Of a DNA stretch of 64,000 bases, positions 14,157 to 59,023 are shown piece after piece (positions within the stretch are counted from its first letter, which is position 1; each line of letters begins with the position of its first letter). The stretch lies in assembly GCA_965263255.1 (NCBI GenBank), contig CBDHHA010000008.1, positions 3,525,987-3,589,986 on the forward strand. Reading direction: 5' to 3'. This DNA comes from Bryobacterales bacterium (lineage in GTDB: Bacteria > Acidobacteriota > Terriglobia > Bryobacterales > UBA6623). Position numbers and translations under genes: made by a program. The notes under the pieces are model-generated. The model had not been told where the DNA came from. It saw only the letters and a list, made by a program, of their open reading frames with translations, and made no database searches.

Positions 14157-14419
14157 CGGGATCGACCCGCGCCTCCGAGCACCGCCTTCATCGTCAGGAC
14201 GGCGTTGGAGCCTTCCTCGTGTTCGGGAAAAACGCCTAGGCTACGGGACCGAACGCCACCCCTTGCCCGGCGGGCGTTTACACGATTGTACCACCAAGCC
14301 CTTTGCCCGCGGCGCGAATCGAGGGCCGCAATCGTTCAGCAGCAGCCCGAGGCAGCCGGGACCTGCTAGAATTCTGGGAGCCGCGGCTGAAAGCGGCCTG
14401 CAGAAGGAAAGGGAACTCC

Positions 14420-14932
14420 ATGAGCAGCATCTCACGACGCGCGGTCATCCTGTCCGGCGCAGCAGCGGCAATGTCCGGCAGGGCGGTCGCGGCGCTGGCG
14501 GTCGGTGACGCGGCACCTGACTTCACGCTTCCGGGCACGGACGGGAAGGACGCGAAGCTGTCGGCCTTCCGCGGCAAGAAGAATGTCGTGCTGGCCTTCT
14601 TCCCCAAGGCGTTCACCGGTGGTTGAACGCGCGAGATGAAGGGATACCAGGCTGGTATCCAGCAGTTCACCGACTCCGACTCCGTTGTGTTCGGCGTCAG
14701 CACCGACCCGCTCGACACGAACAAGAAGTTCGCCGAGTCGCTGAGCCTCGAGTTCGCGATCCTCAGCGACGAGGGCGGCGCGGTCTCGAAGAGCTTCGGC
14801 GTCCTCAACGAGCGGATGATGTCCAACCGGACGACGTTCGTCATCGGCAAGGACGGGAACATCGCGCACGTCGAGAGCGGTTCGGGTGCCATCGACCCGG
14901 CCGGCGCGGCAGCCGCCTGCAGCAAGCTCTAG
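14420..14932 (+). CDS. AhpE-like 1-Cys peroxiredoxin, candidate selenoprotein (in-frame UGA 14624-14626 read as Sec), Tat-like signal
   Basis: ORFs 14303..14626 and 14636..14932 are in the same frame (offset 333 nt). The joined protein reads ...[17 protein letters not shown]-[TGA]-TREMKGYQ...FGVSTDP...FAILSD...[11 protein letters not shown]. The TGA sits at the Cys of the Prx motif P-x-x-x-T-x-x-C. The probable start is ATG 14420, preceded by AAGGAAAGGGA, and the N-terminus is [24 protein letters not shown]. Confidence 0.65.
14637..14669 (+). promoter_or_regulatory. Putative bacterial SECIS-like hairpin downstream of the UGA
   Basis: The upper stem 14642-14649 (GGATACCA) pairs with 14653-14660 (TGGTATCC), giving 8 bp. 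The apical loop is GGC, or AGGCU if the closing A-U opens. A possible lower stem is 14637-14640 (TGAA) with 14666-14669 (TTCA). The upper stem starts 15 nt after the UGA. Confidence 0.45.
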
Positions 14933-14986
14933 CGGAACCTCCGCACTCGGTCGGACGGCGGGCCCGCCATTACGTCGGCTCGCCGC

Positions 14987-16412: not shown

Positions 16413-16489
16413 GCGCTCGTAGCTCAGCTGGATAGAGCGTCTGGCTACGGACCAGAAGGCCGGGGGTTCGAATCCTCCCGAGCGCGCCA
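16413..16489 (+). tRNA. tRNA-Arg (anticodon ACG), CCA encoded
   Basis: GCGCTCG acceptor stem pairing with CGAGCGC, D-arm TAGCTCAGCTGGATAGAGC, anticodon loop CTACGGA (ACG), T-arm GGGGGTTCGAATCCTCC, discriminator G, then CCA. Very similar to E. coli tRNA-Arg(ACG). A TAGAAT hexamer lies at 16394-16399. Confidence 0.95.
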
Positions 16490-56100: not shown

Positions 56101-57165
56101 ATGACTCCTGTGTCCGCTGGAGGGATGCTCGCGATCCTAGCTCTCGCGCTGCCCGCGGCCGGGCAGGAGCTCCTGCCGAATCCCTACGGGGAGGGCCAGC
56201 GCTGGGGCAACCTGCCTGCGGGCCGTGACTGGGGCTCAACGAGCGCGGTATTCCCCCACCGAGACTCGGAGGGCCAGCTGACGGGCAGCATCTGGGTCGC
56301 CGAGCGGTGCGCGGCCAGCCACTGCAGGGAAAGCGACCTGGATCCCGTCCTGCTGTTCGGCTCCGACGGCAAACTGCTTCTGAGCTTCGGGTCAGGTCAG
56401 TTCATCTGGCCTCACGGAATTCACGTCGACCATCAGGGCAATGTCTGGATCGCGGACGCAGTGCATACGGACTGCGAGACCGGACAGGAGGACGGCAGGG
56501 GTCACCAAGTGCACAAGTTCAGCCCGGCAGGAGAGCCCTTGATGAGACTGGGAACAGCAGGCGTGCCCGGGGAGGGGACAACCTCCTTCCGATGCCCTTC
56601 GGATGTGGCTGTCGCGAGGGACGGGACGGTCTTCGTGGGGGATGGCCACAATCACGGCCATGGCGGGAGCAACCGCATCGTCAAGTTCACGGCGGACGGC
56701 CATTTCGTCAGCGCGTGGGGCCGGGCAGGCTCGGGTCCAGGCGAGTTCCGGGGCATCCACGCCCTCGCGGTGGACTCGCAAGACAGGCTCTTCGTGGGTG
56801 ACCGCGCGAACCAACGGATCCAGATCCTAGACACCGACGGCAACCATCTGGCGACCTGGAGGCAGTTTGGCTCGCCAAGCGGGATCTACATCGACGAAGG
56901 CGACAAGATCTATGTCGCCGACTCGGATTCCGGCTACGACCCTGGCAACACGGGCAGTCCACGCAATCCGGGATTCCGGCGGGGAATCTACATTGGCGAC
57001 GCGCGCACAGGCACGGTCGAGGCGTTCATTCCCGACCCGGACCCAGACCTGAGCAGGGTCACAAGCGGGGCGGAAGGCGTGGCCGCTGTCGGGGACTCCG
57101 TGTTCGGTGCCCAAGTTGGCGGGTCCCGCGGCGTGCTGCGGTATTCCGCTCGCCGCCACCGCTGA
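56101..57165 (+). CDS. Secreted NHL-repeat six-bladed beta-propeller protein
   Basis: 354 aa with a signal peptide. The blades are PHGIHVDHQGNVWIAD, PSDVAVARDGTVFVGD, IHALAVDSQDRLFVGD and PSGIYIDEGDKIYVAD. Confidence 0.75.
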   Translation: MTPVSAGGMLAILALALPAAGQELLPNPYGEGQRWGNLPAGRDWGSTSAVFPHRDSEGQLTGSIWVAERCAASHCRESDLDPVLLFGSDGKLLLSFGSGQFIWPHGIHVDHQGNVWIADAVHTDCETGQEDGRGHQVHKFSPAGEPLMRLGTAGVPGEGTTSFRCPSDVAVARDGTVFVGDGHNHGHGGSNRIVKFTADGHFVSAWGRAGSGPGEFRGIHALAVDSQDRLFVGDRANQRIQILDTDGNHLATWRQFGSPSGIYIDEGDKIYVADSDSGYDPGNTGSPRNPGFRRGIYIGDARTGTVEAFIPDPDPDLSRVTSGAEGVAAVGDSVFGAQVGGSRGVLRYSARRHR

Positions 57166-57340
57166 CGGCTCGGCGGCCGAAGGGCGTCGAAGCCAGGGAC
57201 ACCGCCCCGAACGGCCGGCTTGGTCGTGGTCGGCTCTCGGTTCGTTCCGTAGGGGCGACAATGCCCTGAAGGGCACTCCCGCGTCGAATTGCCCGGCAGG
57301 CGGGGGCTCTGGTACCGTAACGGCTTGGGAATTCACCAGG

Positions 57341-57991
57341 ATGGAAAAACAGGACATCTTGAACAGGATCCTGAGTGTCGGCATCGTCCCGATCGTTCGC
57401 ACGGACACGGCGGCGCAGGCACTGCAGGCAATCGAGGCGATCGGGAATGCGGGCCTGCCCGTGGTGGAGGTCACGATGACCGTCCCGGGAGCACTGAAGA
57501 TACTTGAGACGGCTTGTGCCCGGTTCGGCAGCAACATGGTCATGGGAGCCGGAACCGTGCTGGACTCGGCCACGGCCAGGCAGTGCATTCTTGCGGGAGC
57601 GGAGTTCTGCGTGACGCCGTCGCTGGACGTCGGCACGATCGAGATGTGCAATCGCTATTCGAAGTGCGCCATTCCGGGAGCCCTCACCCCGACTGAGATC
57701 ATGACCGCCTGGGATGCAGGGGCGACGATGGTCAAGGTGTTCCCGGTGGGCGCGGTGGGCGGCGCAGACTACATCAAGGCAGTCAAGGCCCCGCTGCCAC
57801 AAGTAATGCTCGTCCCTACCGGTGGCGTCAGCATCGACAACGCCGCGTCTTTCTTCGAGGCAGGGGCAAGTGCCGTGGCAGTGGGCTCGGATATCGTCAG
57901 CAAGCGGTGGCTGATGGAGCGGGACTACAGGCGGATCGAGGCAGCGGCCCGGGGATTTCTGAACGCCGTGGCCCAGGCTCGCGCGGCCTGA
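57341..57991 (+). CDS. eda: 2-dehydro-3-deoxyphosphogluconate / 4-hydroxy-2-oxoglutarate aldolase
   Basis: ORF 57107..57991. The probable start is ATG 57341 (MEKQDILNRILSVGIVPIVR). It carries GLPVVEVTM, GAGTVLD, FCVTP, IPGALTPTEI, VKVFP and PTGGVS. Confidence 0.9.
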   Translation: MEKQDILNRILSVGIVPIVRTDTAAQALQAIEAIGNAGLPVVEVTMTVPGALKILETACARFGSNMVMGAGTVLDSATARQCILAGAEFCVTPSLDVGTIEMCNRYSKCAIPGALTPTEIMTAWDAGATMVKVFPVGAVGGADYIKAVKAPLPQVMLVPTGGVSIDNAASFFEAGASAVAVGSDIVSKRWLMERDYRRIEAAARGFLNAVAQARAA

Positions 57992-58000
57992 GATCGCCGG

Positions 58001-59023
58001 GTGGGCGACCCGATACTGGCCCAGCTCGGCGCGACACCGGCGATCGTGCTGGTGCGGCTGCGCTCGATGGGCGACACGGTCTTGTCGACACCGGCCTTTG
58101 CCCTGCTGCGCCGTAGCGTGCCAAGGGCGCGAATCCATGTCGTGATGGACGACCGATTCGCGGACGTGCTTGCAGGCCAGCCGGACATTGACGCTGTCCT
58201 GCAGCTGCCATCCCGTGGGGGCCTCGGAGTGAAGGCCCGATTGGTCCGCCAGATCAGGGCGCTCAGGCCAAGCCTCTGCCTGGACATGCACGGAGGGTCG
58301 ACGGCCGCATGGCTAACGGCACTCTCGGGCGCCAAATGGCGGGCCGGATTCCAGCACTTCCGCCAGGGCTGGGCCTACAACGTGCGGATACCGCGCGCTC
58401 AGCAGGTACTGCGGCGCGCCCCCGATGCCAGGGTCCATACGGCGGAGCATCACGCCGCTGCCATGGTCCATCTCGGAGCCCCGGCCGGCGAGATCCCCCG
58501 CTCCCGGCTCGCGGGCACCCCATCCCGCCGGCACCCGCCCTACGCGGTCATCCACCCCGGAGCGGCGTACCACACCAAAGCTTGGCCGGCCGACCGCTTC
58601 CGGGCAGTTGCCGGCGAACTCCGCGAGCGGCACGGACTGGCCCCAGTGTTCGTAGCGGGACCGGGAGACGAGGCAGCCGCACGGCAGCTGTCGGGCCTCG
58701 ACGTAAGGAGCGACCTGCCCGTGTCAGCGCTCTCTGCACTGCTGTCCGGAGCGCGCCTGTTCGTGGGCAACGATTCCGGTCCGGCGCATGTCGCAGCTGC
58801 CTATGGAGTGCCTTGCGTCGTGGTCTTCGGTTCGTCCGATTCGGGGGCTTGGCACCCCTGGAGGACACCGCACCGGGTAGTCGAGACGGACTGGGACTGC
58901 AAGCCTTGCCCGGGAGACCGCTGCTACGAGTACGACGAGCCGCGCTGCATCCTAACCGTCGAACTGGGGGACGTGTCCCAGGCGATTGGCGAGCTGCTGG
59001 CCGAGACCCGGTCAGCTAGCTGA
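58001..59023 (+). CDS. Glycosyltransferase family 9 (heptosyltransferase-like)
   Basis: 340 aa with a GTG start. ILVRLRSMGDTVLSTPAF, and the C-terminal motif LFVGNDSGPAHVAAAYGVPCVVVFG. Confidence 0.85.
   Translation: MGDPILAQLGATPAIVLVRLRSMGDTVLSTPAFALLRRSVPRARIHVVMDDRFADVLAGQPDIDAVLQLPSRGGLGVKARLVRQIRALRPSLCLDMHGGSTAAWLTALSGAKWRAGFQHFRQGWAYNVRIPRAQQVLRRAPDARVHTAEHHAAAMVHLGAPAGEIPRSRLAGTPSRRHPPYAVIHPGAAYHTKAWPADRFRAVAGELRERHGLAPVFVAGPGDEAAARQLSGLDVRSDLPVSALSALLSGARLFVGNDSGPAHVAAAYGVPCVVVFGSSDSGAWHPWRTPHRVVETDWDCKPCPGDRCYEYDEPRCILTVELGDVSQAIGELLAETRSAS

Follow-up and report, generated by a model that had tools for sequence, protein, structure and literature searches.

A Single Gene Interrupted by One In-Frame TGA

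We analyzed a stretch of 64,000 nucleotides from a Bryobacterales bacterium (contig CBDHHA010000008.1, positions 3,525,987 to 3,589,986 of the forward strand; hereafter the window), in which positions 14420-14932 very probably constitute one gene for an exported peroxiredoxin (Prx) carrying selenocysteine (Sec) at the peroxidatic position through a recoded UGA codon, as judged from sequence comparisons. A Prx with Sec is a known kind of protein, and it is for this lineage and this probable compartment that it had not been specifically described before. An earlier note on the same DNA had proposed that Sec replaces the catalytic Cys, a proposal that is now supported by the pairing of Cys with TGA in the alignments, by the conservation of the TGA and by a TGA-specific hairpin of the selenocysteine insertion sequence (SECIS) type.

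The two open reading frames at 14303..14626 and 14636..14932 on the + strand share the same frame and are separated by the TGA at 14624-14626 and three sense codons. Translation of the region 14303-14932 returned this TGA as the only internal stop, followed by T-R-E and then by the Met of the second open reading frame, thus bearing out the description in the earlier note of one frame split by a TGA plus three codons. An ATG occurred at the position equivalent to 14420 in all orthologues compared and, because this position is shared and a Shine-Dalgarno-like sequence lies upstream of it in the window, the ATG at 14420 was assigned as the true start, which makes the TGA codon 69 of 170. The upstream in-frame translation, '..[KE]GN.M', was conserved in Bryobacterales orthologues, i.e., the purine-rich stretch has been kept.

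The TGA Occupies the Position of the Peroxidatic Cysteine

When the TGA was translated as Cys, the joined protein matched the Pfam family AhpC-TSA (PF00578) over profile positions 1-123 of 124 (E=1.1e-36, 126 bits, cutoff 26), and the match, comprising residues 28-150, was unbroken across the TGA. The nearest solved structures were all peroxiredoxins, namely the archaeal PrxQ-type proteins 2ywn/4g2e (E=1e-23; 87 bits for 2ywn), M. tuberculosis AhpE (E~4e-22; 81-82 bits for its chains) and Sulfolobus Bcp1/Bcp4 (72-73 bits). The query sequence FFPKAFTGG-[TGA]-TREM was aligned with FFPLAFTGI-C-QGEL of AhpE, the TGA column corresponding to the peroxidatic Cys, and the motif FTGGC-T[K/R]EM was found in 18/18 full-length homologues aligned (51-64% identical, 171-181 residues). 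The structural alignments with AhpE and the 18 Cys homologues, all of which carry Cys in the TGA column, therefore agree with the previous claim that the TGA falls exactly on the catalytic Cys. The column of R137 was also invariant in 24 sequences, and the predicted catalytic set of the window protein consists of P62, T66, U69 and R137, suggesting a peroxidase function.

Assignment to a narrower family was evaluated on the NCBIfam models. The best match was the Bcp equivalog, which at 88 bits stayed below its cutoff of 140, while the scores for the PrxU model NF040737 (53.5 bits, cutoff 270) and for the thiol peroxidase Prx-SUH model NF045827 (24 bits, cutoff 298) indicated that the protein is a member of neither family. 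By sequence, the window protein is placed as intermediate between the PrxQ/BCP and AhpE types of the AhpC/TSA superfamily. The definition of the protein as an AhpE-like 1-Cys Prx, given in the earlier note, can then be retained as far as a loose likeness to AhpE is concerned, the PrxQ/BCP types scoring equally, while the 1-Cys assignment is probably wrong, as a Cys at position 167 is invariant in the family.

Conservation of the TGA in Acidobacteriota

A genome scan with one genome per species returned 42 related loci, individually labelled by L and a number. The catalytic codon was TGA in 39 of these and also in 4 independently assembled metagenome contigs, which excludes the miscall of a TGC or TGT that the earlier note had raised as a question. 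Clade A, which includes the window-like sequences, comprised 32 loci from Bryobacterales, Terriglobia, Thermoanaerobaculia, Holophagales and metagenome-assembled genomes (MAGs) of 'Ca. Multivorans'; 31 of them carried the TGA, the exception being L021 with TGC. Clade B comprised 8 loci from Vicinamibacterales and other Acidobacteriota, 7 of them with the TGA, the exception being the planctomycete L038 with TGC. Two further loci of the 42 were distant Cys-containing Prx, and the Cys forms L047 and L048 showed TGC or TGT at the catalytic codon.

Public protein records gave a consistent picture. About 45 of the best 120 database matches were proteins of 98 residues that correspond to residues 73-170 only, with 85-100% identity, and originate from many contigs, closed chromosomes of 5-6 Mb included. 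Since so many of these 120 matches cover the C-terminal part only, the same in-frame stop appears to have been mis-split in many genomes. The 98-residue fragment is called 'redoxin domain-containing protein' in public records (P0031, P0044; NCBI nr), and a full-length U-containing entry for the family occurred nowhere among the best 120 matches. An identical split into 68 and 98 residues was found on four contigs of one ENA metagenome, where the gene is embedded in the same synteny, with a divergent ffh upstream and a thiolase downstream.

The two sides of the TGA were then compared for selective constraint, using the ratio of nonsynonymous to synonymous substitution rates (dN/dS) calculated against the window sequence by the Nei-Gojobori method on unsaturated pairs. 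Upstream of the TGA, values of 0.03-0.33 were obtained over 42 codons, and downstream of it 0.09-0.5 over 57 codons. As these values are well below 1 on either side, both halves are under purifying selection and hence translated in frame. These results, together with the finding that neither half forms a complete Prx fold, are in line with the earlier view that the halves are non-functional alone and do not represent separate proteins.

A sequencing error converting TGC or TGT into TGA, or the recent decay of the gene into a pseudogene, would require just a single-base change. Such an artefact is effectively refuted by the identical TGA in dozens of independent assemblies from several Acidobacteriota classes, by the dN/dS values on both sides and by the co-occurrence of a conserved hairpin specific to the TGA forms.

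A SECIS-Type Hairpin Downstream of the TGA

TGA terminates 13 of the 28 genes that were called with confidence in the window, rimM and rpsP among them, and, since UGA is an ordinary stop elsewhere in the window, its read-through at 14624 must be local and dependent on a signal. Downstream of the TGA we identified a perfect hairpin, GGAUACCA-GGC-UGGUAUCC, whose first stem base lies 17 nt past the TGA and whose apical loop, GGC, occupies positions 14650-14652. The consensus for bacterial SECIS (bSECIS) elements comprises a loop of 3-9 nt with G in its first two positions, a stem of 4-16 bp, the sequence N1-G-[G/U]-N-N2, a distance of 16-37 nt from the UGA and a minimum free energy <= -7.5 kcal/mol (PMC13188914). 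All these constraints are respected by the hairpin, which shows a 3-nt loop, 7-8 bp, A-GGC-U, a UGA-to-loop spacing of 23 nt and a folding energy of -11.2 kcal/mol for the local 25 nt.

For a comparison of the hairpin, 32 clade-A Sec forms, corresponding to 30 distinct sequences, were aligned true to register. Standard pairs were found in 210/210 stem cells of the 30 distinct sequences, while sliding the 3' partners lowered this fraction to 24-57%. Pair 33-41 covaried, being C-G in 23 sequences, U-A in 5 and U.G in 2, and pair 30-44 varied between A-U and G.U. The U-A state at pair 33-41 needs the change of GGU into GAU, i.e., of Gly into Asp in the protein, which indicates that the stem has been preserved even at the cost of an amino acid. 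The identical stem was independently predicted by RNAalifold.

The stronger argument for the hairpin is its conservation at the nucleotide level rather than covariation. Codon entropy at the six hairpin codons averaged 0.23 bits against 0.88 at 52 other equally conserved columns, and these codons form the lowest-entropy stretch of the whole gene. The hairpin Ala was encoded by GCT in 32/32 sequences, compared with 4.3% GCT at the other Ala columns; one hairpin Gly was GGU in 27/27 and the other GGA or GGG in 32/32, with zero use of GGC, which accounts for 72% at Gly columns elsewhere. In the Cys form L047 the same peptide, GYQAGI, is encoded as GGC UAU CAG GCG GGC AUC, a sequence in which no stem is possible, and the Cys forms L048 and L021 were also devoid of the stem. 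Support for the hairpin comes from sequence comparison and not from thermodynamics, as the fold of the whole segment 14618-14690 was uninformative (z=0.61). On these grounds the hairpin is best described as a bacterial SECIS-type element, conserved together with the TGA and specific to the TGA forms, with a putative role in SelB binding.

A separate observation concerns the two Gly codons before the TGA (window 14618-14623), where GGT was unusually frequent (11/19 and 17/32 across orthologues). GGC prevails at most other Gly columns, and GGT before the UGA may represent a codon-context effect of the recoding site.

The conserved hairpin might also be read differently, as an element of mRNA stability or ribosome pausing next to a UGA that mostly acts as a true stop, giving rise to a 68-residue peptide and perhaps also to a 98-residue fragment initiated on its own. 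Gene callers report just these two pieces, as the earlier note had anticipated for a standard annotation, and an ATG is available three codons past the TGA. We consider this explanation extremely unlikely, because the profile match is continuous over the junction and neither fragment is a complete thioredoxin-fold Prx, and the second would lack both the export signal and the catalytic residue. Moreover, the 9 nt from the TGA to the ATG are kept as sense codons for T-[R/M/L/K]-E, matching T[K/R]E of the Cys forms, the hairpin is restricted to the TGA forms, and the stop at this site was invariably TGA in 32/32 clade-A sequences, never TAA or TAG.

Export Signal and Candidate Resolving Cysteine

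The N-terminal region of the window protein contains a putative twin-arginine translocation (Tat) signal, with the motif S5-R6-R7-A-V-I-L, an Ala-rich hydrophobic core and A-V-A before the mature sequence VGDAAPDF. The motif S/T-R-R-x-[VIA]-[IL]-L was conserved in Bryobacterales orthologues. All orthologues start with a signal peptide, although its type switches among L005-L036, the proteins from Thermoanaerobaculia, Holophagales and 'Ca. Multivorans' bearing a plain signal of the general secretory type in place of the twin-arginine one. The window protein is thus probably exported by a Tat-type signal, presumably to the periplasm, and an exported enzyme would fit the scavenging of periplasmic or external peroxide.

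Residue C167 lies beyond the part of the protein that could be aligned to solved Prx, as these alignments end at residue 150-152. An equivalent Cys is also present in the Sec-Prx of Anaeromyxobacter. That C167 is invariant in Sec forms and Cys forms alike favours a mechanism with two residues, and this Cys is probably the natural candidate for the resolving residue, forming a selenenylsulfide with U69, so that the protein would be a two-residue rather than a 1-Cys Prx.

Selenocysteine Machinery and Alternative Decoding

Solibacter usitatus, a cultured member of Bryobacterales, possesses SelA, SelB and two Sec-containing FdhA proteins (PMC1794560 supplement), and a total of 4 selenoproteins in 3 families was recorded for Acidobacteria (Zhang et al. 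2006, PMC1794560). A literature search on selenoproteins of Solibacter or of sponge-associated Acidobacteria turned up nothing specific. When the Solibacter SelA was used as query in a database search, 8000/8000 scored candidates passed, and the best 120, from soil relatives, were at least 72% identical, several of them being named Acidobacteriia or Bryobacteraceae. A tRNA-SeC gene with anticodon TCA (GGAAGCG...CGCUUCC-GCCA) was detected by ARAGORN in the Terriglobia MAG locus L046 (L046:2819-2916, - strand), about 7 kb upstream of a clade-B Sec-Prx (TGA at L046 10166) on the same 409-kb contig. This tRNA gene adjoins a transposase/integrase-like open reading frame (L046 1549-2694, -) and has no selA or selB beside it.

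Several results weigh against a Tat-exported selenoprotein produced by SECIS-directed recoding. The 64-kb window and all clade-A loci were negative for selA, selB, selD and tRNA-Sec genes. When E. coli SelA/SelB/SelD and Solibacter SelA/SelB served as queries in local tblastn searches of the window and every locus, the only matches were in the two loci chosen for their SelA (L051, L052), and ARAGORN, run over the window and 45 loci, reported a tRNA-SeC in L046 only; the window itself holds one tRNA gene, a tRNA-Arg. None of the best 120 of the 8000 SelA matches was located on a contig carrying a Sec-Prx. No SECIS or tRNA-Sec family of Rfam was detected in the whole window at the gathering threshold or in the region 14380-14980 at E<=10, where chance matches only were returned; this outcome is expected, since bacterial SECIS elements of different genes resemble one another little (PMC13188914). 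Covariation in the stem is thin, consisting of one compensatory pair that probably arose in two or three events within an almost invariant stem. Finally, no match to a Tat-signal hidden Markov model was obtained at E<=0.01 in Pfam or NCBIfam, the export signal having been recognized by its motif.

The Sec machinery is predicted to occur in this genome, the support for it being at the level of the lineage, and its absence would be very surprising because the TGA and the hairpin are under selection in ~40 species.

The same computed results would be obtained if the UGA were recoded site-specifically to Cys or another residue, for instance by a tRNA-Sec-like tRNA(Cys) delivered by SelB to a hairpin that still binds this factor, as they are alike for Sec or Cys at the ribosome. 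Cys recoding of Sec UGA codons is documented in some bacteria, according to the studies cited in PMC8762117 (Mukai et al. 2016, PMC4833512; Vargas-Rodriguez et al. 2018, PMC6103700). We regard this decoding as very unlikely in the present case. Bryobacterales and Acidobacteriia are rich in SelA, an enzyme required solely for making Sec-tRNA(Sec), and the tRNA near the related Sec-Prx of L046 has the features of tRNA-Sec according to ARAGORN. In addition, TGC is one mutation away, as L021 and L038 demonstrate, and yet a costly UGA and its hairpin have been retained in ~40 species, a retention that would be pointless if the inserted residue were Cys.

Some observations were made on the selA loci themselves. 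In Solibacter-like genomes, selA is located between tRNA-Pro(CGG) and efp (L051:9868-11332, L052:9868-11335). The tRNA-Pro(CGG) gene occupies the gap upstream of selA in L051/L052, where selC had been suspected, and this candidate was rejected. The Solibacter usitatus SelA sequence given in the 2006 supplement begins with ...GEWIRTTGLLVPNQALYQAEPRP..., apparently a translation through that tRNA gene, its start presumably having been called too far upstream.

Proposed Mechanism

Returning to Sec as the inserted residue, we propose that UGA codon 69 would escape reading as a stop during translation. The downstream mRNA hairpin, with its GGC loop and spanning 17-35 nt past the UGA, would recruit SelB-GTP-Sec-tRNA(Sec) to the ribosome, which would then insert Sec at codon 69. 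The product, carrying the N-terminal twin-arginine-type signal, would probably reach the periplasm, where U69, with activation by T66 and R137, might reduce peroxides. The resulting selenenic acid would probably be resolved by C167 as a selenenylsulfide and then recycled by some thiol reductant.

Second Clade and Paralogues

Clade B represents a second clade of exported Acidobacteriota peroxiredoxins, with a sequence signature that ends in -[KR]SLR. In its Sec-Prx genes the TGA is located at L037 10184, L039 10208, L040 10166, L041 3793, L042 1878, L043 8610 and L046 10166, while the TGC form (L038:3217) has no hairpin. The hairpin of clade B, GUCGCUC-CGUG[A/C]-GAGCGGC, differs from that of clade A and lies at the same distance from the TGA. 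In proteins of clade B the C-terminal Cys is missing, and a Cys is found instead at the fourth residue after Sec. These features suggest that clade B derived from a separate Cys-to-Sec conversion.

Divergent Sec-Prx paralogues were also found at L018:10001-10513 and L019:10001-10513, with the sequence AFFKEALTGG-U-TLEM, in which the Pro of P-x3-T is replaced, and a signal of the general secretory type. L018 and L009 come from one MAG (CBDBHC010000002.1 and CBDBHC010000001.1), that genome thus having two Sec-Prx genes. From their naming (SB06xx_bin, RHO3_bin, COS3_bin, CO36388bin), many of the MAGs with Sec-Prx, such as those of L007, L008, L019, L022, L023, L025, L027 and L036, may be derived from studies of marine sponge microbiomes; if this assumption is true, the lineage of the window might live in the sea or with a host instead of in soil.

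A broader model can be put forward, although tentatively and with slightly less than even confidence in all its parts. An extracytoplasmic selenoperoxiredoxin would be exported by the Tat pathway in Bryobacterales and by the general secretory pathway in sister classes, would operate through a U69-C167 cycle with a periplasmic reductant and would have arisen by Cys-to-Sec conversion in two clades, each with its own SECIS constraining the coding sequence.

Features and Genomic Context

The coordinates of the features discussed are collected in Table 1.

Table 1. Positions of the observed and predicted features of the Sec-Prx gene in the window.
Feature	Position	Strand	Remarks
Sec-peroxiredoxin coding sequence, complete (predicted)	14420..14932	+	170 codons including UGA-69; stop TAG 14930-14932
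Shine-Dalgarno-like AAGGAAAGGG	14404..14413	+	6 nt before ATG 14420; putative function, from sequence
Predicted export signal	14420..14491	+	residues 1-~24, motif-based; cleavage site approximate
Active-site motif P62-K-A-F-T66-G-G-U69	14603..14626	+	structure and homologue alignments
Predicted selenocysteine codon U69 (in-frame TGA)	14624..14626	+	peroxidatic Cys column; invariant in 32 clade-A sequences
SECIS-type hairpin in the coding sequence	14642..14660	+	stem 14643-14649 with 14653-14659, 7 bp; optional outer pair G14642-C14660
R137 codon, conserved catalytic Arg of peroxiredoxins	14828..14830	+	invariant column
C167 codon, C-terminal motif G-A-x-x-A-C, candidate resolving Cys	14918..14920	+	invariant in Sec and Cys forms

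The block ffh-rpsP-rimM-trmD-rplS is located upstream of the Prx gene in most orthologous loci of Bryobacterales. In the window, a tRNA-Arg(ACG) gene is found at 16413-16489 (+), 1.5 kb downstream of the Prx gene; a tRNA-Arg also occurs downstream of Prx in most Bryobacterales loci, usually at ~1.4-2.2 kb and at ~6 kb in L015.

The whole window was searched for same-frame TGA junctions with coding-like flanks of at least 100 codons on both sides, and two were found, at 14624 and at 57989. The latter (57107-59023, +) shows a pattern similar to that of the Prx gene, a TGA followed by three codons, and was evaluated as a second case of recoding and rejected. Its flanks are unrelated neighbours, a KDPG/KHG aldolase followed by a family-9 glycosyltransferase (GT9 heptosyltransferase).

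Implications and Comparison with Known Systems

The public annotation of this family appears to be wrong, reporting dozens of 98-residue and 68-residue pieces instead of one predicted 170-residue selenoprotein, and as a result of this fragment annotation the selenoproteomes and antioxidant repertoires of Acidobacteriota would have been under-counted. The predicted gene would add a widespread acidobacterial group, and apparently the periplasm as a location, to the known range of Sec-peroxiredoxins. Within the gene, codon choice and even one amino acid are constrained by an RNA element, of which this is a clean example from nature. The understanding of selenocysteine decoding itself is unchanged by these findings.

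Sec-peroxiredoxins are an established family of prokaryotic selenoproteins with a T-x-x-U motif (2026 review, PMC13188914). PrxU of Eubacterium acidaminophilum, reported in 2001, is the experimentally characterized member (Sohling et al. 2001; PMC13188914). PrxU and the window protein have in common the AhpC/TSA fold, Sec in place of the peroxidatic Cys, and a UGA with a downstream hairpin, and would function alike in broad terms. However, PrxU is a cytoplasmic protein of the AhpC/Prx1 type with the motif FTFVU, and the window protein scores far below the cutoff of the PrxU model NF040737.

Zhang et al. 2006 recorded 12 bacterial Sec-Prx (PMC1794560), among them Anaeromyxobacter_dehalogenans_2 (supplementary file 4), which showed 46% identity to the window protein over 140 residues, with Sec at the peroxidatic position in both. 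The two sequences share KAFT-x-G-U-TRE, LLSDEGG, ANR-T-[FY]V and the C-terminal G-S-x-AIDPAGA-x-x-x-C. They differ in that the former comes from Myxococcota and carries FTPGU, whereas the window protein belongs to Acidobacteriota/Bryobacterales and carries FTGGU; a putative Tat-type signal is present in the window protein, while the catalogue sequence of Anaeromyxobacter_dehalogenans_2 is N-terminally truncated. Neither the FTGGU motif nor the GYQAGI peptide occurs in the 2006 catalogue (PMC1794560).

Among solved structures, AhpE (PDB 1xvw, 1xxu, 4x0x) and PrxQ/BCP (2ywn/4g2e, 3drn) resemble the window protein in the FFP-x-AFTG-x-C loop and in overall length. These proteins use Cys and lack a signal peptide, AhpE being a 1-Cys Prx, and they do not possess the C-terminal extension with the invariant C167 that is specific to the family of the window protein. 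A precedent for selenoproteins exported by the Tat system is provided by the catalytic subunits of E. coli formate dehydrogenases N and O, which combine Sec with a twin-arginine signal but are large molybdoenzymes, unrelated to the window protein in fold and function.

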